A stretch of 64,000 nt of DNA from an uncultured Rivularia sp. (GTDB taxonomy: Bacteria; Cyanobacteriota; Cyanobacteriia; Cyanobacteriales; Nostocaceae): the NCBI GenBank assembly GCA_963665115.1, contig OY762007.1, positions 2,880,001-2,944,000 on the forward strand. The letters are read 5' to 3'. Both the position numbers and the translations under genes were made by a program. Below the pieces are notes generated by a model. It ran no database searches. It saw nothing but the letters and a program-made list of their open reading frames with translations, and had not been told where the DNA came from. This document shows positions 49,471 to 64,000 of the stretch, in pieces. Numbering within the stretch: the stretch's first letter is position 1; the number at the start of each line of letters is the position of its first letter.

Positions 49471-51675
49471 TCATACCTTAACTTTATTTGCCGAAGATTT
49501 TCCAGCCTCGGTTGCATCATCTGCATCAATTCTTTCTCTACTCACCTTGTAGTACTGTTGATAATTACTTTGAGAAGTAGGTGTGGACTCTTTAGATTTA
49601 TTCGCTACCAAACCTAAAATAGGAGTACCGCTAACTTGAAGTTCCTCTAACGCCTGTGCGAATGCAGTGCGTTTCAATTTACCTAAACCAGCTACCAACA
49701 TAACGCCATTAGTATTTGCTGCCAATAAGTTAGCATCAGCGAAACCAACTATAGGCGTAGTGTCATAAATTACTAAATCAAAGCTGCTATGTAGTTCGTT
49801 CATTAAGTCCTGCATTTTCACAGACGCTAACAATCTAGTAGAGTCTGGTGGAACCGGGCCAGCAGCCATTACATACAGATTATCTTCAAGGGGGGAGCGT
49901 TCAATCACATTGCTCCACTCCAATTCAGAAGAAATAATATCCGTTAAACCCTGGATATTCATCAATCCTACACGGTTGTGTATAGTAGGACAGCGGAGAT
50001 TTGCATCCACTAATAAGACTCTTTGTCCCATCGCTGCTGCGGCCAAAGCTAACTGTATAGCAACAGTAGTTTTACCGTCTTCTGGTGTTGCCGAACTAAC
50101 TACAAGCGAACGAATCGGTGTATCCGAACCCAGAAGAAGAATATTGGTGTAAAGAGAGCGAAAAACTTCAAAAAAGGCGGCGCGTGCTGTTTGATGAACT
50201 CCACTAGCTGCTCCATCTTGCTTGCTACTAGCTGCAAGTTCTTTGCTGAAAGGAACTACCCCCAATAACGGTAATCTAGTAGTTTCTTTCAAATCTTTAG
50301 AAGTGTAGAAAACATTGCTCAACTTGTCTACAATTAAAGCAGCACCCACACCCAATAACAAGCCTAAAGCTCCACCCAAAGCTAAGTTTTTTCTAGCACT
50401 TTGTGACATAGCTTCAGGATTTTCAACTTTAGTAAGTTGAGGATCTAGTAACTTCCAAGGCTGCTGTTTTTGAGACTTTTCAATTTCCAGGGCTTGCTGC
50501 TTGGTTAAAAACTGGTTTAGCCCTGTGGTAGCAATCTGTAACTCCCGCTGAATATTTTCGTAATCGCGGGTAACTGTTGCCAAATTTCTCAGTTCTGCAT
50601 TGAGCTTATCTACCTTGTCACCTAAAGATAGATCGCGAGCATATAACGTTTGGATGCGACTTTGAAATTCTTGTTGAACTCGCTGTTCTTCTGCATTCAG
50701 CATTGGAATCAAATTCGCTTTCCTTTGCCGTAAAGTCTGCATAGTTGGATTGATATCCGTAAATTTAGCAGACTCCGTTTTGACCTCAATCTCAACTTTC
50801 TGGATTTCGTCTAAGATTTTTTGGTAGCGAGGATTTTCACTCAGTATCGAATTACCTGCCCTCTCCGCTGGCTGCTGCGCTAATTCCTTTTGTAACTCCT
50901 TATACTGAGCCATCATTTGTTCGTACTCTACCCGGTTGCTTAATCGCTGTTGCGTCAAAGTAGCAATTTGACCGGACACTTCAGTTGCTTTCTGTGCGGG
51001 TTCAATCAGGTTGTTCACGCTTCGCAGCATTCGCAATTTATTTTGCAAGTCTTTAACCCGCTGTCTTAAGCCACCTTTAGTGATTCGTCCTTGAACAAAT
51101 TTAATAGCCTGATTAATGTCTTCCTGTCGTTCCTTTAAGCTGTACTCTAAATAAGATTGAGCAACTTCGTTTAAAACATCACTCACTAGTTGCTTGTCTG
51201 CGGCTACATATCCTACCGTTAAAATATTTTTCTGACTGGAGGCAATAATTAAACCCTTAACAAATGATTCGTATTCCAGATTTGGATACTTCGTCTGAAG
51301 CTTTTCTACAACTGAATCAAGTACTCGCGGGCTTTTTAAAACTTTAATTGTTGTTGCAATATCTTTTTCCGACTCCGGAAGTGCGATCGCATCCTTAGAA
51401 CCCAAGGTTTGAGGTACGTTTGATATAGCTTTACTTTCCCCAGTCACGGGTTCAGTTAAAATCTCAAACTGACCCTGATATATCGGAGGATCGGTTTCTG
51501 CTTTCAACACCGCAGCGGTTGCTACTACCCCGGTACAACCAACAATTAATAATGCACGCCGTCGCAGAGCCGCTCCAACTTGCCCTAAATTCAATCCACC
51601 TTCTTCAGCTTCATTCAAGGGGCTACCTGCTTGAGAAAAGAGGTAAGAATTTTTATCTGACTTCAACATAGTCAT
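49471..51675 (-). CDS. Second Wzc/GumC co-polymerase tyrosine kinase
   Basis: EDGKTT, VDANLR, Tyr-rich tail (NYQQYY). Confidence 0.9.
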   Translation of the reverse strand: MTMLKSDKNSYLFSQAGSPLNEAEEGGLNLGQVGAALRRRALLIVGCTGVVATAAVLKAETDPPIYQGQFEILTEPVTGESKAISNVPQTLGSKDAIALPESEKDIATTIKVLKSPRVLDSVVEKLQTKYPNLEYESFVKGLIIASSQKNILTVGYVAADKQLVSDVLNEVAQSYLEYSLKERQEDINQAIKFVQGRITKGGLRQRVKDLQNKLRMLRSVNNLIEPAQKATEVSGQIATLTQQRLSNRVEYEQMMAQYKELQKELAQQPAERAGNSILSENPRYQKILDEIQKVEIEVKTESAKFTDINPTMQTLRQRKANLIPMLNAEEQRVQQEFQSRIQTLYARDLSLGDKVDKLNAELRNLATVTRDYENIQRELQIATTGLNQFLTKQQALEIEKSQKQQPWKLLDPQLTKVENPEAMSQSARKNLALGGALGLLLGVGAALIVDKLSNVFYTSKDLKETTRLPLLGVVPFSKELAASSKQDGAASGVHQTARAAFFEVFRSLYTNILLLGSDTPIRSLVVSSATPEDGKTTVAIQLALAAAAMGQRVLLVDANLRCPTIHNRVGLMNIQGLTDIISSELEWSNVIERSPLEDNLYVMAAGPVPPDSTRLLASVKMQDLMNELHSSFDLVIYDTTPIVGFADANLLAANTNGVMLVAGLGKLKRTAFAQALEELQVSGTPILGLVANKSKESTPTSQSNYQQYYKVSRERIDADDATEAGKSSANKVKV

Positions 51676-52587
51676 AGTAAATTAAAATTACTTAATATAG
51701 ATAGACGTAATTTGTAGCTTTCATTACCTAAAGACACCATCGCTAGACGGTTTACTTTAATGTTTTGACAACAGCGATGCACCCTATATTTCTCAAGAAG
51801 TTAACAAAATACGACCGACTGTCTCCAAGCTATCCCTATTGGTTTGTTAACAACCTACCCGACAGATATACCACCCTGTTGAAGTATTGAAGATACCAGT
51901 CTACGGCTCGCGATGCACTATGAGTCCAGTAGCATTACTTAGTCGATGCTTGTCGATTCATTTACAAGTGTAATAAATTATAATTAAAATTTCACTACTA
52001 TTTCTATAAAATACACAAATTCAGTTTCCAATACAGTGCTTGCATCCCAAAGTTTAGACCCCATCCGATAGCCAGTAAGATAATTTATCTTTATAATTAA
52101 CTTAGTGTATTATTACTCTATTAACTTTGTTTTTTCCGGACAAAACTTATTGTTAATAATTTTACCTATTTTTATTTTCTCTCAACATTCAAACATCGAA
52201 TTTTACTCTGTGAAATAATTAGTAATTGATAAATGCAAATTATGTAGGCAAGTATTAAGTGCGATTCAGTATAAGGTAGTAACAATTATTGCCCACACTC
52301 TTTTCTGTCACAACGTGGCGCTTTACATATAATACAAAGATTATTTAAAGAATATATGTTTAACATCCAATTAAATTGAAGCTAGTGCAAACTAACGTAT
52401 AGTTTTTTGATAGAAAATAGCTAAGTTCACAACAATAAAATTTTATATATCAACTTGCAGGCTCAGAAATCAACTTACAGTATTTAAAACCAATTAATCT
52501 GCTATCAAATAATATAAACAAATAAAAAACCTTCCTACTATTAGAAAGGCTATATATCGCAAAAAATATTTTTTCAATCTTAATAAA

Positions 52588-52659
52588 CTGGGGTGCTAGG
52601 ATTCGAACCTAGGAATGGCGAGACCAAAACCCGCTGCCTTACCACTTGGCGACACCCCA
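52588..52659 (-). tRNA. trnQ: tRNA-Gln(UUG)
   Basis: TGGGGTG acceptor stem, GCCAAGTGGTAAGGC D-arm, TTTTGGT anticodon loop, GGTTCGAATCC T-arm. Confidence 0.97.
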
Positions 52660-53307: not shown

Positions 53308-53902
53308 CAAGTAGTTAACAATAACGCATCTTTATTTTATAACTATATACATATCGCCAAAGAAATATTCGTATATCAAACTAATTAATACTTTTTCTAT
53401 TACTATCTACTAAGAATACTAAGCTTCTATACAATTACACATTTCAATTTTACATTAACTTTATATATATGTTAACTTCATAAATTATCCGGAATTAGTT
53501 ACCCATACTTACGTATATCTTTTAAGATTATACTTAATTGCCTACAGAGCTATACAGGGCTACCTAAAGCAAACATCTACCGCTACATACAGCAAGTTGC
53601 ACTCTTGTAACCGATGCCTTTTTGACTTAAATTCTCGGATCGGGGAAAATAATTTGGGTCAAATCTGTTAACGTGCCATGTTCTTTTTACTTATTCGTGC
53701 TTCAGCTAATACCTGATAGCTTGATAATGAGTACAAGTATCTACCAATAGTTATTTGGGTAACAACAAATATCAGGACATCTAAAACGATAAACTGTCTT
53801 GTAAGCTACTTGATATATCAAGTGATATCACTTATGTTAAAAAAAGTTTGATACAGGTTGCAGAGGAAAAATCAACAGATTAGAAAAAGGAAGTGTCCTA
53901 CA

Positions 53903-54205
53903 ATGATAACTTCAACAACAGATTCCATGATTTCGGAAAAATCTATAATAGTATCTGTGAAAAATCAAATTTCTTCCGATCTTGGTGGTGAAGCGGTGAT
54001 TTTAAACATGAACACCGGAACTTACCACGGTTTGAATGAAGTGGGTGCTTTTGTATGGAACTTGATTGATCAACCGCAAGTCGTAAAAGATATTCAACAA
54101 AAGCTTTTACAAGAGTACGAAATTGAAGCTTTAATTTGTACTAAAGATTTGTTTGCACTGCTTAACGATTTGCACGGTGAAGGGTTAATTGAAGTTAAGA
54201 ATTAA
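53903..54205 (+). CDS. PqqD-family RiPP recognition element (lasso B1), copy 1
   Basis: QISSDLGGEAVILN...YHGLNEVGAFVWNLI; RBS-like AAAGGAAG before the ATG at 53903. Confidence 0.92.
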   Translation: MITSTTDSMISEKSIIVSVKNQISSDLGGEAVILNMNTGTYHGLNEVGAFVWNLIDQPQVVKDIQQKLLQEYEIEALICTKDLFALLNDLHGEGLIEVKN

Positions 54206-54645
54206 ACGCCTGTGTAATTGTTTTAAATTTCTAGGTGTAATAGGTGCTTTCGATTAACTTCCGTATTTTACTTTCAGTTATCAGATTAGATTAGAACTGT
54301 GGTTTCTACCGTTTCGAGTTTTATTAAAAAAAGTTAGTTTACTCAAACTGTATTTAGGTCACGTATATTAAACCAAATTTCTGTCAGTAAAGTTATTTCG
54401 GCTGTAAATATAGCTACTTGCTATACACTTAGGCAATCAAAGTATTTCACACTATCGCGTTTACTACTAAGGTGTTGATGAGTCGTTGTGCTTGTCTTCT
54501 TGAACTTACAGGTATTATTTTCTGAGTAAGTAAAACTTTCTGGCTCATGCTGGGATTAAATACAAGAAAAGGGTTGTAATTAATTCCGTAAGTAAACCTT
54601 TAACGATTTATCTCACTACCATCTCTCGAAGGAATCAGATTATGA
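54195..54645 (+). pseudogene. Decayed lasso leader peptidase (B2)
   Basis: Fragments IRLELWFLPFRVLLK, SKVISAVNIATCY, AFTTKVLMS, AHAGIKY and ISLPSLEGIRL match the intact B2 at 60919; same ATGA overlap with the cyclase. Confidence 0.85.
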
Positions 54646-56672
54646 GCGGTATCGTAGGTATTTGCTACCTGGATAAAAGTCCTGTAGAACAACAAAATAT
54701 AGCGCGAATGATTGATACATTGGCGCATCGGGGACCTGATGGTGCAGACATCTGGGTAGATGGTTCTGTGGGCTTAGGACACCGGATGTTATGGACTACT
54801 CCTGAGTCTTTGATAGAAAAACTGCCTTTAGTCAATCAAAGGGGCGATATAGTTCTTACTTCTGATTGTCGCATAGATAATCGCGAAGAGTTGATTGCTG
54901 CATTACAGTTAAATAATCGTTCCTCCGAGAAAATTACTGATAGTGAATTAGTTCTGGGTGCCTATGAGAAATGGGGTGAAGAATGTCCGGAACATTTGTT
55001 AGGTGATTTTGTCTTTGCCATTTGGGATAAGCGAAAACAGACTTTGTTTTGTGCTAGAGATCATATGGGGGTTAAGCCATTTTATTATTTCCATCAGCCG
55101 GGTAAACTGTTTGCTTTTGGTAGCGAGATAAAAGCGCTGTTATCTTTGCAGGATGTACCGCGAAGGCTGAATGAAATTAAGGTAGGCGACTATCTAGCAT
55201 CAAATTTTCAAGATAAAGTTGAAACCTTTTATCAAGATATCTTTCGTCTTCCACCTGCGAGTTGTTTAACTTTAAATCGGAAAGGATTGCAAATTCGTTC
55301 TTATTGGTCTCTCGATCCAGAGCGCGAATTATGTTTAAGTTCTGATGAGGAGTATGCAGAGGCATTGCAGGAAATCTTTGCAGAATCAGTACGGTGTCGG
55401 TTGCGTAGCGCTTTTCCTGTAGGTTCTCATCTCAGTGGTGGACTGGATTCTTCTTCTGTCACCTGTATGGCACGGAAAATTTTAGAAGAAAAGAATTCTA
55501 AGTTACATACTTTCTCTAATATATTTGATACAGTTACTCAATGTGACGAACGCCCTTTTATCGAAGCTGTACTTGCTCAGGGCGGAATGAATCCTCACTA
55601 CGTCCACGGCGATGAACTCGGACCTCTATCAGACTTAAAACGAATCTTTAAATATCACGACGAAGTATTTTTTGGTCCCACTCATTTTCTAGTTTGGGTA
55701 GCCAACCTTGCAACAGAGAATCAAGGTATCCGAATTGTACTTGATGGCTTTGACGGCGATACCACAATTTCTCACGGTGATGGTTATTTTACCGAACTAG
55801 CACACAAAGGACAATGGGCTGCTTTTGCCAAGCAAGCGAATGATATTGTTCAACGTGCGGGGGGTGGTTCACCTTTAAATATTCTGAGGAGTTCTGGTCT
55901 TACTTATGTAGAAGACTTAGCACGAAAATCAAACTGGCTTGGTTTTGCCAAAGAAACTCGTCAGATATCCAAATACTTTGATATCTCCCAGCAACAGATT
56001 CTTGTGCAACATGGCTTAAAGCCATTGATTCCTGAGTCTGGGCGGCTAGCTTGGCGAAAACTACGCGGACACAATGAGCCGATGCTTAACGCCAATTGGC
56101 TATTTAACCGCAGCTTTGCTCAAAAAATCGGCTTGAAAAAACGTATTAAGGCTTTAGATGAATCTCAGTCTCATCTTCCCGTGACAGAAAGGGAGTATCA
56201 CTGGCGTTATCTAACTTGGGGCTTAGTCGGGTATGCGATGGAGACGTTGGATAAATCATATGCAACCTTTTCAATCGAAGCCCGTCATCCATTCATGGAT
56301 AAACGATTAATTGAATTTTGTCTCTCCTTACCGCCGCAGCAAAAGCTCAACCAAGGATGGACTCGCTTAGTTATGCGCCGTGCCATGCAGAATATTCTTC
56401 CCGAACAAGTGCAGTGGCGACAAACTAAATCTAAAATGACTGCTAGCTTTATACATGGGCTACTCAATCTAAACCGTCAGGTGTTAGATGATTTGATGCA
56501 AAATCACCTTGAGCCAATCGCTACCTACGTAGATATAAATGCTCTGCGTCAAGGCTATGAAAAATTGACATCTAGTAGCAAGATTGGTTCTTATGAAAAT
56601 TCCATATTAATTGAAATATGGAAAGCAGTTACCCTTAGCTTCTGGTTGCGTCACAGCCAGATTGAGTATTAA
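54642..56672 (+). CDS. Lasso peptide isopeptide-bond cyclase (C), copy 1
   Basis: Asparagine-synthetase fold with Ser at position 2 (no catalytic Cys), HRGPDG, LSGGLDSS, GFDGD, R-PF-D. Confidence 0.93.
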   Translation: MSGIVGICYLDKSPVEQQNIARMIDTLAHRGPDGADIWVDGSVGLGHRMLWTTPESLIEKLPLVNQRGDIVLTSDCRIDNREELIAALQLNNRSSEKITDSELVLGAYEKWGEECPEHLLGDFVFAIWDKRKQTLFCARDHMGVKPFYYFHQPGKLFAFGSEIKALLSLQDVPRRLNEIKVGDYLASNFQDKVETFYQDIFRLPPASCLTLNRKGLQIRSYWSLDPERELCLSSDEEYAEALQEIFAESVRCRLRSAFPVGSHLSGGLDSSSVTCMARKILEEKNSKLHTFSNIFDTVTQCDERPFIEAVLAQGGMNPHYVHGDELGPLSDLKRIFKYHDEVFFGPTHFLVWVANLATENQGIRIVLDGFDGDTTISHGDGYFTELAHKGQWAAFAKQANDIVQRAGGGSPLNILRSSGLTYVEDLARKSNWLGFAKETRQISKYFDISQQQILVQHGLKPLIPESGRLAWRKLRGHNEPMLNANWLFNRSFAQKIGLKKRIKALDESQSHLPVTEREYHWRYLTWGLVGYAMETLDKSYATFSIEARHPFMDKRLIEFCLSLPPQQKLNQGWTRLVMRRAMQNILPEQVQWRQTKSKMTASFIHGLLNLNRQVLDDLMQNHLEPIATYVDINALRQGYEKLTSSSKIGSYENSILIEIWKAVTLSFWLRHSQIEY

Positions 56673-56813
56673 AACAGGTGCATCCCCAATATATATCTAA
56701 CTTCTATTTGTATTATTATCTCATTTCTATCTGTACTCTTATTAAAGCGGGGTATTTCCCAAAAGGAGTACCTCTATCGCGAAACACAAACAAAAACCAC
56801 AGGAATTCAAACA

Positions 56814-57005
56814 ATGAAGAAAACTTACGAAGCACCCAAACTCACCAACCACGGTACAGTAGCTCAAATGACCAATTTCTTTGGTAAAGGAGATGGAGAC
56901 ACTTTAATTGGTCCAGGTCCCAATGATGACACAGGTAACCCTGGTGGTTCCATCGATGCTTGTGCAACATTCGACCAGGGCAACTGCTTCGGTAAAGATA
57001 ATTAA
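56814..57005 (+). CDS. Lasso peptide precursor A1
   Basis: Leader YEAPKLTNHG...MTN (YxxPxL, G, Thr-2); Asp8 in the predicted core; directly after the cyclase. Confidence 0.9.
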   Translation: MKKTYEAPKLTNHGTVAQMTNFFGKGDGDTLIGPGPNDDTGNPGGSIDACATFDQGNCFGKDN

Positions 57006-57020
57006 TTAAGTTTATGAAAG

Positions 57021-57368
57021 AAGCAAGCTGTGCAAATTTGACTGCAACTCGAATGTACATTAAAGGCTTACTTCTGACAAATTCAGCATTACCGAACAAG
57101 TTCTAATCTAATATGAGTACAATACTCATGCTTCAGGGAATTCATCTAATTTGATATCTGTATCTACCATCGAGAGTTCAAAGTCTGAATCAATTCACTT
57201 TGATAAAAGACTTTGAACCTCGACACCTAACAAAGCAATGTCGATTAATTCGTACCAATTTATTTGCTTGAGAAGTCAAAGTAAGCAATTGTAAATTCGA
57301 CTGCAACTCGAATGTACATCTAAAACTTAACTCTGACAATTTCAGCATTACCGAACAAGCTCTAATCT
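57021..57368. repeat. ~87-bp imperfect direct repeat (57021-57109 and 57283-57368) around a long hairpin
   Basis: Shared GACTGCAACTCGAATGTACAT and TTCAGCATTACCGAACAAG blocks. Confidence 0.85.
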
Positions 57369-57553
57369 GTCCTCAATATAGCATTAATTAATTAAGTTGC
57401 AGGTGTAATTAAATACGTCTGGCTACTGCGTGATGTCTTTTTTTAGAAGTTAATTGAATTTAACATCCTACTTAAGACAGAAAAATCATATTTTTATCTA
57501 AACAATATCCTTACTTTCTACCTCTTAAGCAAGATGTAATTTACCAATTAAAT

Positions 57554-58489
57554 ATGTTCACCTATTCTGCCTACAATCTTCGTATTGACTCTGAAATTTT
57601 CTTCTCCGAACTTGTAACTTCTCAGGAGGACTTAAGCCGAATCGAACAACTACCCCAAATAATCATACAGCAACGTGAAATCAATCGCTCAGAAATTAAA
57701 AATGCGAATGGTGGCGATCGCTTTGTAGGATATTTAGAAATAAATAAATTACAGTCGTGTAGGTTTTTAGTAGAATTTGGTCGCAAGATTGTGATTGAGC
57801 CTGTCTTAGGAATCGCAGACAATATTATTCGTCCCTGTATTCTCGGTCCGATATTTAGCGTACTGCTGAGGCAAAGAGGACTGCTGGTTGTCCATGCTAG
57901 TTGTGTTGGTATTGATGATGAAGCTGTTGCATTCCTTGGAAATTCAGGATGGGGTAAGTCAACCTTGGCTAATGCTTTTTATAACCAAGGATATCCCCTA
58001 CTTACCGATGATGTAATGGCAATTGAGATTAACAAAGGAAATGAAAGCAATGCAATTACTTTTCCTGCTTATCCCTGTGTGAAACTGCTGCCAGATTCGG
58101 CTGCCAGTTTAGGATACGATTTTGAGGAACTAGCTGTAATTAACTCAGGTTTACTCAAGCGTCATAACAGTCTTACTGAAAAATTTGTACAAAAGCCTTT
58201 ACCCGTCAAGCGAATATACGCATTAGAAAATATTGCAGCCCCTCGTCATGAAGTGCAAACGCTTTCTTCTCAAGATGCACTTGTAGAATTGGTTCGTCAT
58301 TCTCGTGTTACGAATTTATTGACTACTCCTGAATTCACTAGTGCTCATTTGCATCAATGTACGCAACTGATAAAAAAAGTACCTGTTTATCGTTTGAGAA
58401 GACAAAAAACGCTAGCCGCACTTCCCGATTTAGTAAAACTTATAGAAGATGACGTTGCCAAAAGTAATCGTGTAATATCATATACCTAA
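57554..58489 (+). CDS. HPr-kinase-like lasso peptide kinase, copy 1
   Basis: HAS, GNSGWGKST Walker A, LTDD. Confidence 0.85.
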   Translation: MFTYSAYNLRIDSEIFFSELVTSQEDLSRIEQLPQIIIQQREINRSEIKNANGGDRFVGYLEINKLQSCRFLVEFGRKIVIEPVLGIADNIIRPCILGPIFSVLLRQRGLLVVHASCVGIDDEAVAFLGNSGWGKSTLANAFYNQGYPLLTDDVMAIEINKGNESNAITFPAYPCVKLLPDSAASLGYDFEELAVINSGLLKRHNSLTEKFVQKPLPVKRIYALENIAAPRHEVQTLSSQDALVELVRHSRVTNLLTTPEFTSAHLHQCTQLIKKVPVYRLRRQKTLAALPDLVKLIEDDVAKSNRVISYT

Positions 58490-58583: not shown

Positions 58584-60398
58584 ATGCAAGCAGGCAAATT
58601 AAAAGAAAAATTCCAAAGTACGCAACGCCTATTGCCTGCTTTGCGACTGGTTTGGCAAAGTAGCCCTCGCTGGACGATCGCCCGCGTAGTAATTTTGATT
58701 GTTCAAGGTATTCTGCCTGTAGTGGGAATTTATCTGGGCAAACTAATTATAGATACAGTAGCAGCCAGCCTCACTACTGCCGATAAAACCGCAGCTTTTA
58801 ATAATGTAATATTTTTCGTTATCTTAGCAGCAGCAATCGCCCTATTAACTAACCTTGCTAACTCCCTCGGACAATTAGTTACTACCGCTCATTCCCAGCG
58901 AGTAACCGATTATATGCAGGGAATTATTCAAGCGAAATCAATTGCGGCAGATTTAGAATACTACGAAAATCCCGTATACTACGACGTATTACAAAGAGCG
59001 CAACAAGAAGCGCCTTACCGACCTCCGCAAATCCTAAATCGTTTGGCACAGGTTGGTCAAAATGCGATTACTTTAGTTGGGATGATTGCTTTACTGCTGT
59101 CGCTGCACTGGGGAATACCCGGTGTTCTTTTTGTTGCATCCTTTCCGGCTATGGTAGTGCGAGTAAAATATTCTCAGATAATGTATCGCTGGCAGCGCAA
59201 AAAAACACCAATGGAACGTCAGGCAGCTTACTTGGGCTATATGCTGACGGTAGACCAGTTTGCTAAAGAAATTCGTTTATTTAATTTAGGTTCTCACTTC
59301 TCTCAAGCGTATCTTCGCATCCGCAAACAGATATATAAAGAAAGTCTTGCGATTCTAACCGGACGTTCTTTAGCTAGTTTTGCAGTTGAGGCGATCGCCG
59401 CTATTTTAATTTTTGCAATTTATTCTTATATTATTTATCAAACTATCAACGGTGTGCTGCGTTTGGGGGATTTAGTCCTGTACTATCAAGCGTTGCAGCG
59501 GGGACAGGGCAATATCAAAGGTTTATTGAACAGTTTATCTGGACTTTATGAGGATAACTTGTTTCTGGCGAATCTCTACGAATTCCTTGATATTAAACCC
59601 AAGTTAATCGATCCTCCCAACCCCGAACCAATTCCTCATCCAATGAAAACTGGGATTGAATTTAAAAATGTCGGTTTTCAATATTCCACAACTACCCGTC
59701 AGGCACTTAAAAATATTAACCTGACAATTAAACCTGGGGAAGTAGTAGCCTTGGTGGGGGAAAATGGTTCAGGTAAAACTACTTTAATTAAACTTTTATG
59801 TAGATTGTACGACCCTACCGAAGGCAGAATTACCATCGATGGTATCGATCTAAGTCAATTTAAAACTGAAGAATTACGCCGTCAAATCAGCGTGATTTTT
59901 CAAGACTATGCAAAATATCACTTTACTGCTCAGGAAAATATTTGGTTGGGAAACATAGATTTACCACCGCAAAGCGACAGCATCATTAAAGCAGCACGGC
60001 GTTCTGGTGCGGATGATGTAATAAAAAAATTACCCAAAGGTTACGATACCATCTTGGGTAAATTATTTGACAAAGGCGAAGAACTTAGTATTGGACAGTG
60101 GCAAAAAGTTGCTTTAGCGCGGGCATTTTTGCGAGATTCCCAGCTAATTGTTTTGGATGAACCCACCAGCGCAATGGACCCCAAAGCAGAATATGAAGTG
60201 TTTGAAAAGTTCCGCCAATTAATTAAAAATCAATCCGCGATTTTGATTAGCCATCGCTTATCTACCGTGAAAATGGCCGATCGGATATACGTCATGGATA
60301 ATGGAACAATTGTCGAAGGTGGTACCCATCAGGAGTTGATGAAGTTGAAGGGTACCTACGCTCATTTGTTTGAAATACAAGCTAGTCAGTATATGTAA
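58584..60398 (+). CDS. ABC transporter, fused permease and ATPase (lasso D)
   Basis: GENGSGKTT, LSIGQWQK, LDEPTS, SHRLST. Confidence 0.93.
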   Translation: MQAGKLKEKFQSTQRLLPALRLVWQSSPRWTIARVVILIVQGILPVVGIYLGKLIIDTVAASLTTADKTAAFNNVIFFVILAAAIALLTNLANSLGQLVTTAHSQRVTDYMQGIIQAKSIAADLEYYENPVYYDVLQRAQQEAPYRPPQILNRLAQVGQNAITLVGMIALLLSLHWGIPGVLFVASFPAMVVRVKYSQIMYRWQRKKTPMERQAAYLGYMLTVDQFAKEIRLFNLGSHFSQAYLRIRKQIYKESLAILTGRSLASFAVEAIAAILIFAIYSYIIYQTINGVLRLGDLVLYYQALQRGQGNIKGLLNSLSGLYEDNLFLANLYEFLDIKPKLIDPPNPEPIPHPMKTGIEFKNVGFQYSTTTRQALKNINLTIKPGEVVALVGENGSGKTTLIKLLCRLYDPTEGRITIDGIDLSQFKTEELRRQISVIFQDYAKYHFTAQENIWLGNIDLPPQSDSIIKAARRSGADDVIKKLPKGYDTILGKLFDKGEELSIGQWQKVALARAFLRDSQLIVLDEPTSAMDPKAEYEVFEKFRQLIKNQSAILISHRLSTVKMADRIYVMDNGTIVEGGTHQELMKLKGTYAHLFEIQASQYM

Positions 60399-60617: not shown

Positions 60618-60935
60618 ATGACTTATCCACAACCTGACGTGCGCGAAATTGCAGAATCATCAATAGTAGTAGCTGCTGAAGAGCAAATCTCTTCCGACCT
60701 TGGCGGCGAATCAGTTATCCTGAACATGAAAACAGGAGTCTACCACGGTTTAAATGAAGTGGGTGCGCGGGTGTGGGATTTGATTGAGAAGCCAAAAGCT
60801 GTGAAAGAGATCAAACAGGTACTCCTCAAAGAGTACGAAGTTGAGCCAGATGTTTGCACCAACGACCTGTTCTCACTATTAAATAATTTAAAAACCGCAG
60901 GGCTAATTAAAGTAACAAATGAAACTGCTGCGTAA
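60618..60935 (+). CDS. PqqD-family RRE (lasso B1), copy 2
   Basis: QISSDLGGESVILN...YHGLNEVGARVWDLI. Confidence 0.93.
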   Translation: MTYPQPDVREIAESSIVVAAEEQISSDLGGESVILNMKTGVYHGLNEVGARVWDLIEKPKAVKEIKQVLLKEYEVEPDVCTNDLFSLLNNLKTAGLIKVTNETAA

Positions 60936-61356
60936 GCTTTGGAATCTGAGAAAAGTTAATTTTTACTTCTTATTTGTTACTTACTTTTTACTAGGAGCAA
61001 TTCGGTTAGGGTTGCTGTTGCTGGAATTTCGCATCTTATTAAAGATAATAAATAAACTTATTACGATAAATTTGCCACTCCCTAATGCTCGTTTAAGTCA
61101 AATTCTTTGGGGTGTCAATGTTGCAACCCGCTATATGCCAGGTGGTGCAAAGTGTTTAGCAAGAGCTTTAACTACTCAAGTATTGATGAGTCATAGTGGT
61201 TTTCCCCCGGAATTGTGCATAGGGGTTGCTAAAGGAGAGAAAGGAGAATTAGAAGCGCACGCTTGGATTAAATATCAGGGATACGTTGTTATCGGTTATC
61301 TACCAGATCTACCACGCTACATTCAACTACCATCCCTTGAAGGAATTAAATTATGA
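60919..61356 (+). CDS. Lasso leader peptidase B2 (transglutaminase-like)
   Basis: CLARAL catalytic Cys; AHAW His motif. Confidence 0.93.
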   Translation: MKLLRKLWNLRKVNFYFLFVTYFLLGAIRLGLLLLEFRILLKIINKLITINLPLPNARLSQILWGVNVATRYMPGGAKCLARALTTQVLMSHSGFPPELCIGVAKGEKGELEAHAWIKYQGYVVIGYLPDLPRYIQLPSLEGIKL

Positions 61357-63281
61357 GCGGCATCGTAGGTATTCACTACTTTGACGAACGTCCTGTAGAC
61401 CGCGAAAACTTAACAAAAATGGTTGATATATTGGCGCATCGCGGCCCAGATGGTGCAGATATCTGGGTTGATGGGTGCGTTGGTTTGGGACACAGGATGT
61501 TATGGACTACTCCCGAATCACTTATAGAAAAGCTACCTTTGGTAAATCAGAGGGGCGATTTAGTAATTACAGCAGATGCTCGGATTGACAATCGCGATGA
61601 ATTGATAGCTGCTTTACAGATAAATAATCGTCCTGCTGATAAGATTACAGATAGCGAGCTGATACTGGCAGCATACGGGAAATGGGGCGAAGATTGCCCA
61701 AAGCATTTATTAGGTGACTTTGCATTTGCGATTTGGGATCGGCGTAAGCAGATGTTATTTTGCGCTAGAGACCATTTTGGGGTGAAGCCTTTCTACTATT
61801 ACTCTGCTAACAATACTTTTGTTTTTGGTAGCGAGATAAAAGCAATCTTTTGTTTACCAGAGGTTCCTCGTGAGATTAATGAGGTAAAAGTTGCTGAGTA
61901 CTTATCTATAGAAACAGACGATAAAAGTATCACTTTTTATAATGACATTTTGCGGCTTCCTCCTGCCTGTAAAATGATTGTAAAGAGTAAAACTGTGGAA
62001 TTACAGTCTTATTGGTCTCTTGATTTTACTCGCGAGTTGCGATTGAGTTCGGACGAAGAATATGCAGATACTTTCCGTAAAATCTTTACTGAAGCAGTAC
62101 GCTGTAGATTGCGTAGCGCTTTTCCTATAGGCTCAATGTTAAGCGGTGGCTTGGATTCTTCGTCTATCACCTGTGTAGCACGGAAGTTCATCGCAGAGAA
62201 AGAAGAAAAAAATAAATTACACACTTTCTCAGCAGTTTTTGATAAAGTAACCGAATGCGATGAGCGTGTTTTTCAAGATGCAGTTCTTGCCCAAGGAAAT
62301 ATTGAACCGCATCACTTTCATGCTGATGGATTCAGTCCTTTAACCGATTTTGAACAAGTTCTTTGGCATCAAGATGAAGCTTATTCTGCTGGTAACTTAT
62401 ATTTAAATTGGAATCTTTATAAACCTGCTAGAAAAAATGGTGTTCGCGTTATTTTAGATGGATTTGATGGAGACAGTACCGTATCTCATGGTTTAGGATA
62501 TTTAACTGAATTAGCCAGTAAGGAGCAATGGTTTCAATTAGCTATACATATAAGAAATTACTGTACAAGAATAGGTAAACCTTGGCAAGAAGACTTATGG
62601 AGTTGGATATGGGTTTATAAAATTAATCCTATTATTTGCAAATCTCGCATTCTTACTAAAGCATGGCGCAAATCACAAAAATTGTTTCAAAAAAATCAAC
62701 TTCAAAAACCAGCTTGGAGAAGATTAATTAATTCAGAATTTGTTAAGCAAATTAACTTAATTGAGCGTCTAAGAAATCAACCAAATCCCCCAACAACCGA
62801 ACGGGAAACACAATACCGTTGTTTGATGGAAGCAGGTATGGTTCGTACTCTGGAAAATTTAGATAGAACAGCAAAAGCATATGGAATTGAACTTCGGTTT
62901 CCTTTCTGGGATAAGCGGCTTATAGAATTCTGTCTATCTTTACCTCCGGAGCAAAAGATATCAAAGGGTTGGACTCGGATGGTAATGCGTCGAGCGATGA
63001 AAGATATCCTACCGCAAAAAGTGCAATGGCGAGTCGGTAAATCAAATATGCATCCAGGATTTGAAAGAGGATTGCTCGAATTTGAGCGATTGCGCTTAGA
63101 GCAAATCATTTTACATAACCCGAAAGTAATTGAAAAGTATGTAAATATCGCTGCCCTACAGCAAGCATATCACCGCTACCTGTCTAAACAAGCAACAGTG
63201 GAAGAAGTTAACTCTATTTGGAAAGCTTTTTCTCTAGCTCTGTGGTTAGAACACAAGAATTTGCCAAAACAGAGCTTGTAA
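61353..63281 (+). CDS. Lasso peptide cyclase (C), copy 2
   Basis: Paralog of 54642; LSGGLDSS, GFDGD, RFPFWD. Confidence 0.93.
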   Translation: MSGIVGIHYFDERPVDRENLTKMVDILAHRGPDGADIWVDGCVGLGHRMLWTTPESLIEKLPLVNQRGDLVITADARIDNRDELIAALQINNRPADKITDSELILAAYGKWGEDCPKHLLGDFAFAIWDRRKQMLFCARDHFGVKPFYYYSANNTFVFGSEIKAIFCLPEVPREINEVKVAEYLSIETDDKSITFYNDILRLPPACKMIVKSKTVELQSYWSLDFTRELRLSSDEEYADTFRKIFTEAVRCRLRSAFPIGSMLSGGLDSSSITCVARKFIAEKEEKNKLHTFSAVFDKVTECDERVFQDAVLAQGNIEPHHFHADGFSPLTDFEQVLWHQDEAYSAGNLYLNWNLYKPARKNGVRVILDGFDGDSTVSHGLGYLTELASKEQWFQLAIHIRNYCTRIGKPWQEDLWSWIWVYKINPIICKSRILTKAWRKSQKLFQKNQLQKPAWRRLINSEFVKQINLIERLRNQPNPPTTERETQYRCLMEAGMVRTLENLDRTAKAYGIELRFPFWDKRLIEFCLSLPPEQKISKGWTRMVMRRAMKDILPQKVQWRVGKSNMHPGFERGLLEFERLRLEQIILHNPKVIEKYVNIAALQQAYHRYLSKQATVEEVNSIWKAFSLALWLEHKNLPKQSL

Positions 63282-63500
63282 AAATATGTATGAAATTTAT
63301 CCTATCAAGAACCCGGTTTTTTTACTAATTACACAACAAAAAAATTATGGTTTGACTAAAAAACCGGGTTTCTTAAGATTTATTAATCCAAGATATCAAT
63401 TTAAATCAAGTTATAGAACGTTTTACTTTACGTCCAATCTTTATATGAAGCGAAATATAATTCGCACCAAAAATCTCGTAAACAATAAGGACTTCAAACT

Positions 63501-63669
63501 ATGAATTCTCAAATTAAAAAGTCTTACATCGCACCTGAATTGACTACTCACGGTAACGTTGAGGAAATCACTTTACAAGGGGTCTTTACAGAATGCAGAT
63601 GTACCTAACGGACCTAATGGCACTGCTAACTGTTTTGCAGGTAGTACAGATCCATCTTGTATCTCATAG
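63501..63669 (+). CDS. Lasso peptide precursor A2, with an apparent +1 frameshift in GGGG at 63579-63582
   Basis: Leader MNSQIKKSYIAPELTTHGNVEEITL. As read it stops at 63608; removing one G gives core QGSLQNADVPNGPNGTANCFAGSTDPSCIS*. Confidence 0.82.
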
Positions 63670-63830
63670 TCTAAGCAATTGCTACTGATAAAAAAGTAGC
63701 TTCTGATTAGGTAAATGACAGGAAGTAGATGTCTATAATATTGGCATCTACTCCCATTCATTTACTCTTACAAACTATAGAGCACAAGTTTTAGCTTATT
63801 AAATAATTGATTCTATTAAAAGAAAAACAA

Positions 63831-64000
63831 ATGTATTTTTATAAAGCATACGGTCTTTTATTTCGCTGTAGCTTTGATTTACCAGAATTTATCACTACTG
63901 AAGAAGCAGAACCTGATGTTGTAATCACTCGGGGTAAGATAGAACATTCTTTTCCCGAGCATATACCCGCCCAAGGCTACTTTTATGCTACAGAAAATGA
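63831..64000 (+). CDS. 5' part of a second HPr-kinase-like lasso kinase
   Basis: MYFYKAYGLLFRCSFDLPEF...PDVVIT resembles MFTYSAYNLRIDSEIFFSEL of copy 1; same position after the precursor. Confidence 0.7.
   Translation, partial: MYFYKAYGLLFRCSFDLPEFITTEEAEPDVVITRGKIEHSFPEHIPAQGYFYATEN

Follow-up and report, generated by a model that had tools for sequence, protein, structure and literature searches.

A probable one-base insertion artefact hides a predicted Ser-terminated lasso precursor with a tail Cys pair in a two-module cluster of a Rivularia genome

We analysed a 64,000-nucleotide stretch (the window) of the genome of an uncultured Rivularia sp., G000, which consists of a single 8.69-Mb contig. 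The window ends within a lasso peptide cluster made of two modules (Table 1). Module 1 comprises B1, a decayed B2, the cyclase C1, the precursor A1 and the kinase K1; an ABC exporter follows, and then module 2, in the order B1, B2, C2, A2 and K2, with a PF14907 nucleotidyltransferase beyond the end of the window. Precursor A2 thus lies between the lasso cyclase C2 and the HprK-like kinase K2 with its nucleotidyltransferase, and the adjoining B1, B2 and cyclase genes all score above the cut-offs of their family models (NF033536, NF033537 and NF033535). The two-module layout is also found in the same-genus genome G007, where L029 is the syntenic locus, and in G003, G013, G021, G004 and G009.

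The B2 leader peptidase of module 2 is the sole intact one within the cluster. Its counterpart in module 1 is a real, old pseudogene with several stops and frame changes, at least one stop lying at the identical place in G007; partial matches to it occur in G003, G013 and G021 and none in G004 or G009. With its own B2 decayed, module 1 would have to borrow that of module 2. The cluster is flanked by a Wzc-like chain-length gene and tRNA-Gln (52588-52659) on one side and by a run of genes that look like glycosyltransferases on the other (window 49471-52659 and L002:4185-18659), the chain-length and glycosyltransferase names being given from sequence appearance. At L002:16640-18659 (minus strand), two overlapping ORFs of 441 and 276 aa look like one split gene, as judged from the paralogue at L002:15148-16584.

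Table 1. Features of the two-module lasso cluster around precursor A2 (window positions unless a locus is named)
Feature	Position	Strand	Evidence or remark
Module 1, whole	53858-58489	+	
Module-1 B1	53858-54205	+	
Module-1 B2, decayed	about 54200-54640	+	
Module-1 cyclase C1	54642-56672	+	
Module-1 precursor A1	56814-57005	+	
Module-1 kinase K1	57554-58489	+	
ABC exporter, likely common to both modules	58584-60398	+	
Module-2 B1 (leader-binding RRE)	60618-60935	+	PF05402; NF033536, 81.6 bits (cut-off 80)
Module-2 B2 leader peptidase	60919-61356	+	PF13471; NF033537, 93 bits (cut-off 33)
Lasso cyclase C2	61353-63281	+	NF033535, 937 bits (cut-off 525)
A2 leader, 25 aa, YxxPxL at -17 to -12, Thr at -2	63501-63575	+	NF033528 lasso_cyano, E 1.7e-7
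A2 core, 30 aa with the extra G skipped	63576-63669	+	orthologues P0002, P0037, P0048
GGGG before TC, likely systematic +1 error	63579-63582	+	run contigs, genome statistics
Two hairpins past the A2 stop, putative	63671-63765	+	63671-63710 terminator-like; 63711-63765 with 27-nt arms
HprK-like kinase K2, 5' part	63807-64000	+	314 aa in all; continues in L002 to 2751
Nucleotidyltransferase, past K2, outside the window	L002:2899-4029		PF14907

As assembled, the frame that opens at the ATG at 63501 encodes 35 residues and stops at 63608 (63501-63608), giving a 25-residue leader followed by a 10-residue core without Asp or Glu at positions 7-9, just as an initial annotation made from the sequence had read it. 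That annotation also called the precursor absent from the ORF track, which holds for the long form, unseen as assembled, but not for the 35-aa form, which appears at a 30-aa cut-off and stands in the protein collection as P0003, known only from the G000 contig. When one base of the GGGG run is skipped, so that the run is read as one codon, a 55-aa ORF ending in TAG at 63667-63669 results. This repair reproduces the 30-residue core proposed earlier, with Gln1, Gly2, Asp8 (63598-63600), Cys19 (63631-63633), Cys28 (63658-63660) and a terminal Ser30 (63664-63666), together with a further Ser at position 3; the in-frame allele therefore has in Asp8 the acceptor that the short frame lacks.

Read off relative to Gln1, the leader carries Tyr-17, Pro-14, Leu-12 and Thr-2, so that both the YxxPxL element and the Thr are present at the spacing given for lasso leaders in the available text of PMC10368454, and because of this spacing we take Gln as residue 1. 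A2 scores 31.1 bits against NF033528 lasso_cyano, below the cut-off of 33, which A1 passes at 42; a Pfam scan returned no match for either precursor. The only two Cys of the repaired core both lie outside the ring, in the tail, as in class IV lassos. At the level of sequence, A2 carries every feature examined of a lasso precursor of the Ser-terminal kinase type. Upstream of it, an inverted repeat with 18-nt arms occupies 63307-63374; stretches of 65-70 bases like this one recur at many sites in same-genus genomes, as a dispersed intergenic repeat.

Four sequencing runs contain the stretch, and we compared their contigs over 63200-64000. The contigs of X2 (depth 66), X3 (depth 244) and X4 (depth 4.9, a single low-depth contig) lack one base at 63579, so that three of the four runs read GGG. 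Run X1 (depth 205) reads GGGG like the assembly, yields no GGG contig, although run contigs drop rare variants, and contains all sampled words; it is probably the source of the assembly. X1, X2 and X3 are otherwise identical across 801 bases, X2 and X3 being other samples than X1 and so possibly other strains, and X4, an independent biofilm metagenome from another study, differs at 2 further places over 449 nt. The in-frame allele is present as DNA in X2, X3 and X4, and its long frame is preserved in orthologues. A confirmed GGGG coupled with a short frame conserved among homologues, named at the outset as the outcome that would count against a hidden precursor, is thus not what the runs and homologues show.

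An orthologue of 55 aa without a frameshift, P0002, is encoded in G007; with P0037 and P0048 it forms a set of 30-aa cores each carrying Asp8, Cys19, Cys25 and Ser30; Cys19 is common to these three and A2, whereas the second Cys stands at 28 in A2 and at 25 in the others. No homologue keeps the short frame: all are in frame, and the frameshift site is not conserved. Asp8 is present in all close homologues, the five closest in-frame homologues have Asn or Thr at position 3 and all keep the terminal Ser, and all 18 aligned relatives share Gly2 but differ in the preceding residue. A profile built from 18 short relatives, 17 of them Ser-ended, found 107 proteins, 86 of them Ser-ended by automatic parsing, a share biased by the profile; Gln was predicted as first residue more often than any other (47 of 107). 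Among the 86, 79 have no Cys, three (P0002, P0037 and P0048) have a tail-tail pair, two a ring-tail pair and two another arrangement. By its sequence, A2 is a member of the short, Ser-ended subfamily of lasso_cyano, within which the tail-tail pair appears to mark a small subfamily of four including A2; because so few Ser-ended relatives carry this pair (3 of 86), the predicted disulfide looks like an optional add-on. The ring-tail Cys pair, a class III pattern, is seen in L089:9853-10002, P0004 and P0039, two of which are Ser-ended, and the L089 precursor adjoins a K2-like kinase.

We next consider the GGGG run against the rest of the genome. An alignment of G000 with G007 (20 stretches of 20 kb; 288,537 aligned bases) held 73 isolated indels of 1-2 bases. 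Those that broke a frame numbered 13 in G000, of which 12 were extra bases, and 21 in G007, all extra bases; in G000, indels break genes at a rate of one or more per 22 kb. As a genome-wide measure we used a -1 repair signature, given by a site where two open frames, each 100 codons or longer, become one when a single base is removed. Against a background of 0.42% of 1,834,843 base runs, the signature marked 39 of 655 GGGG-TC sites (14-fold enriched; p 1.8e-31), a count for which the A2 site itself is too short. It also marked 37 of 330 GGGG-CC, 27 of 140 GGGGG-TC and 20 of 1168 GGGG-AC sites, and 0.1-0.5% of sites in the remaining nine GGGG contexts. A one-base gap in G007 was found at 4 of 21 aligned GGGG-TC sites and 6 of 22 GGGG-CC sites, versus 7 of 695 in other contexts.

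For the first 20 of the 39 marked GGGG-TC sites, we searched the flanks on either side for family matches at E 1e-25. Fifteen gave no match at this threshold and two matched non-contiguous or different models; the other three were each one gene cut exactly at the motif, namely psaA (G000:C1:2104889; model positions 1-105, then 108-507), uvrB (G000:C1:4938375; 2-183, then 187-586) and a VioB-like gene. The uvrB gene is single-copy, and the broken psaA is the main copy, beside psaB, with a 74% paralogue elsewhere. It is unlikely that a living phototroph would have psaA and uvrB truly broken at one motif. GGTC/GACC (0.51) and GGCC (0.26) are depleted in G000, which fits methylated restriction sites, and the error could arise from DNA methylation at GGTC/GACC that provokes a +1 insertion on a long-read platform; no account specific to methylation-linked insertions in long reads appeared among the papers that a literature search listed. 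Insertions of one base at GGTC/GACC, GGCC, GGAC/GTCC and GGAAAC break many genes in both G000 and G007, and within the window gene-splitting insertions relative to G007 (+1 and +2) lie at about 39175 and about 45145, probably errors of the same kind. For frameshift sites other than that of A2, the case for artefact draws on the G007 comparison and the genome statistics. Frameshift and pseudogene findings in G000 and G007 at GGTC, GGCC, GGAC and GGAAAC are to be held suspect.

The extra G at 63579 is very probably an artefact of sequencing or assembly. The precursor had been described as masked by a frameshift, and the frameshift is indeed in the assembly, but as an artefact rather than a biological mask. 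A real mutation that recently inactivated the gene in the population sampled as S1, with sister populations intact, would agree with the depth at which X1 reads GGGG and with the origin of X2 and X3 in different samples, and the module-1 B2 shows that the cluster does contain a true pseudogene. That psaA and the sole uvrB are broken at this motif too, which is enriched genome-wide for the repair signature, and that X1, X2 and X3 are identical over the rest of the compared bases, makes such a mutation improbable. Hardly credible is a programmed switch at GGGG, by ribosomal frameshifting or phase variation, between 35-aa and 55-aa products: both alleles are seen among the runs and the C-terminal peptide of the short frame contains two Cys, but four bases make a short run for slippage, the 35-aa form is known from the G000 contig only and lacks an acceptor at 7-9, unrelated genes show this insertion as well, and homologues are in frame at a site that they do not conserve.

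K2 contains a His, the Lys of a GxGKS motif and an Asp-Asp pair, matching the His-Lys-Asp-Asp motif named for lasso kinases in the available text of PMC9266682. Its match to PF07475 (E 2.7e-6) is below the gathering score, and in a PDB sequence search with K2 all matches were to HPr kinases, none better than E 0.006. To place K2 and A2 among relatives, we used a three-sequence profile that matched 107 of 389 genomes of the family; 82 loci, made up of part of these matches and four others, gave 100 distinct parsed precursors, of which two had an ambiguous kinase and nine had none in the stretch fetched. The Cys count was 0 or 2 in 99 of the 100. Ser-ended precursors made up 13 of the 20 beside K2-like kinases versus none of the 69 beside K1-like kinases, 37 of which contain a pair of tail Cys. 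A quick tree of 66 kinases placed K2 in a 16-row clade (SH-aLRT 97) in which 13 of 16 neighbouring precursors are Ser-ended, the exceptions being A2 as assembled, one Ala-ended precursor and one with an extension, whereas Ser-ended neighbours are absent from all 48 rows on the opposite side; the tree keeps L029_2287, a long branch that is probably not a kinase. By these sequences the link between kinase and terminal Ser is essentially that of one clade, and we read it as consistency rather than as repeated co-evolution or independent evidence.

Precursor A1, beside K1, has a 42-aa core with Asp8, a tail Cys pair and a GSxD motif and no terminal Ser, and most of the 69 precursors beside K1-like kinases likewise carry GSxD in the tail. 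Because none of these is Ser-ended and most have the tail motif, their sequences suggest an internal phosphorylation site in A1-type precursors.

Our main reading, to which we assign a probability of roughly 0.6, is that the extra G is an artefact and that A2 encodes an intact 55-residue lasso precursor whose product would have a Gln1-Asp8 ring, a Cys19-Cys28 disulfide and a phosphorylated Ser30. Taken by itself, the occurrence of all three predicted modifications in a single peptide stands at about even odds. Each part of this structure had been proposed in the initial annotation, and each gains sequence support: the ring from the leader spacing, the phosphorylation from the adjacent His-Lys-Asp-Asp kinase and its clade, and the disulfide from the pairing of Cys in orthologues. 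By extension from paeninodin and pseudomycoidin, K2 would phosphorylate the still linear precursor at Ser30, once or perhaps several times; B1 would bind the leader, B2 would cleave after Leu-1, and C2 would link Asp8 to the amine of Gln1 around the threaded tail. Oxidation of Cys19 and Cys28 would need no dedicated enzyme, in keeping with what has been suggested for class IV lassos; a hexose may be attached to the phosphate by the nucleotidyltransferase, and the ABC transporter would export the peptide.

An intact gene whose lasso is not doubly decorated, with Ser3 phosphorylated instead, the tail trimmed or the Cys left free, is the rival that deserves most attention, though we consider it unlikely. 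Ser3 is in the core, BsfK (PMC10368454) and LppK (PMC13381572) modify Ser3 according to the available text of these sources, and 79 of the 86 Ser-ended relatives have no Cys. Yet the five closest in-frame homologues carry Asn or Thr in place of Ser3 and all retain the terminal Ser, and Cys occur in pairs among relatives, which speaks against free thiols. We judge it very improbable that the leader is cut one residue later to give a 7-membered Gly1-Asp7 ring. The invariance of this Gly, and the variation of the residue before it, would suit such a cut, but Gln1 satisfies both the Thr-2 and YxxPxL spacing given in the available part of PMC10368454 whereas Gly1 breaks both, and paeninodin and pseudomycoidin start with Ala1 in that of PMC6993621. 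The main reading, with Gln as first residue and Ser30 as phosphorylation site, is the one compared below with characterised systems.

The closest parallel is pseudomycoidin (psm, Bacillus pseudomycoides), for which the available text of PMC6993621 describes, as here, split B1 and B2, a cyclase, an HprK-like kinase, a nucleotidyltransferase, an ABC exporter and a Ser-ended precursor, and whose precursor, too, called for resequencing to put right a database sequence error. It differs in its Ala1 and 9-residue ring, as described there, from A2 with its predicted Gln1-Asp8 ring, tail Cys pair, cyanobacterial host and second module. Paeninodin (pade, Paenibacillus dendritiformis), in the available text of PMC9266682 and PMC8498205, shares a kinase with the His-Lys-Asp-Asp motif beside a Ser-ended precursor but is a class II lasso without a disulfide, from a cluster without a nucleotidyltransferase. 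K2 is likened to PadeK and PsmK by the motif as described rather than by direct sequence comparison. The tail pair of A2 resembles that of the class IV lassos LP2006, pandonodin and the felipeptins, which have one all-tail disulfide and no dedicated oxidase; unlike the A2 cluster, class IV clusters are described without a kinase or phosphorylation in the available parts of PMC9266682 and PMC13352647. By analogy, the A2 product may work like pseudomycoidin with a class IV tail.

Cyanobacterial lasso clusters have been predicted before (NF033528; PMC9332814, as available), and A2 and its cyclase fall under this bioinformatic scheme, the leader matching NCBIfam lasso_cyano NF033528 and the cyclase passing NF033535. 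Reviews from 2022 and 2026 list class IV members and phosphorylated lassos separately, with no overlap in their available text. In the portions of the literature accessible to our search, we found no lasso with both a disulfide and a phosphate, in line with the earlier remark that the combination was not known from characterised examples, and no characterised cyanobacterial lasso or Gln1 lasso; orthologues may stand in prediction catalogues. Disulfide and phosphate are each known separately, and their joint presence would be new relative to the literature so searched. As to function, the available text of PMC6993621 reports no antibacterial activity for paeninodin or pseudomycoidin; because of this, and of the position of the cluster among polysaccharide genes, we lean weakly, by analogy, towards a surface or signalling role.

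We would tentatively go further and see in A2 the first phospho(glyco)lasso of class IV, its ring closed between Gln1 and Asp8, in a family that shifts between no disulfide, a ring-tail and a tail-tail disulfide on one Ser-terminated scaffold, in a cluster where one peptidase would serve two cyclases and the kinases would follow different site rules, the terminal Ser in A2 and the internal GSxD Ser in A1. If the main reading is true, A2 offers a testable lasso that joins two separately known tailoring features to an unusual first residue, and it comes from a phylum without a characterised lasso peptide in the accessible literature. With naturally occurring variants of classes II, III and IV next to a single kinase clade, the family would then allow the roles of disulfide and phosphate to be separated.
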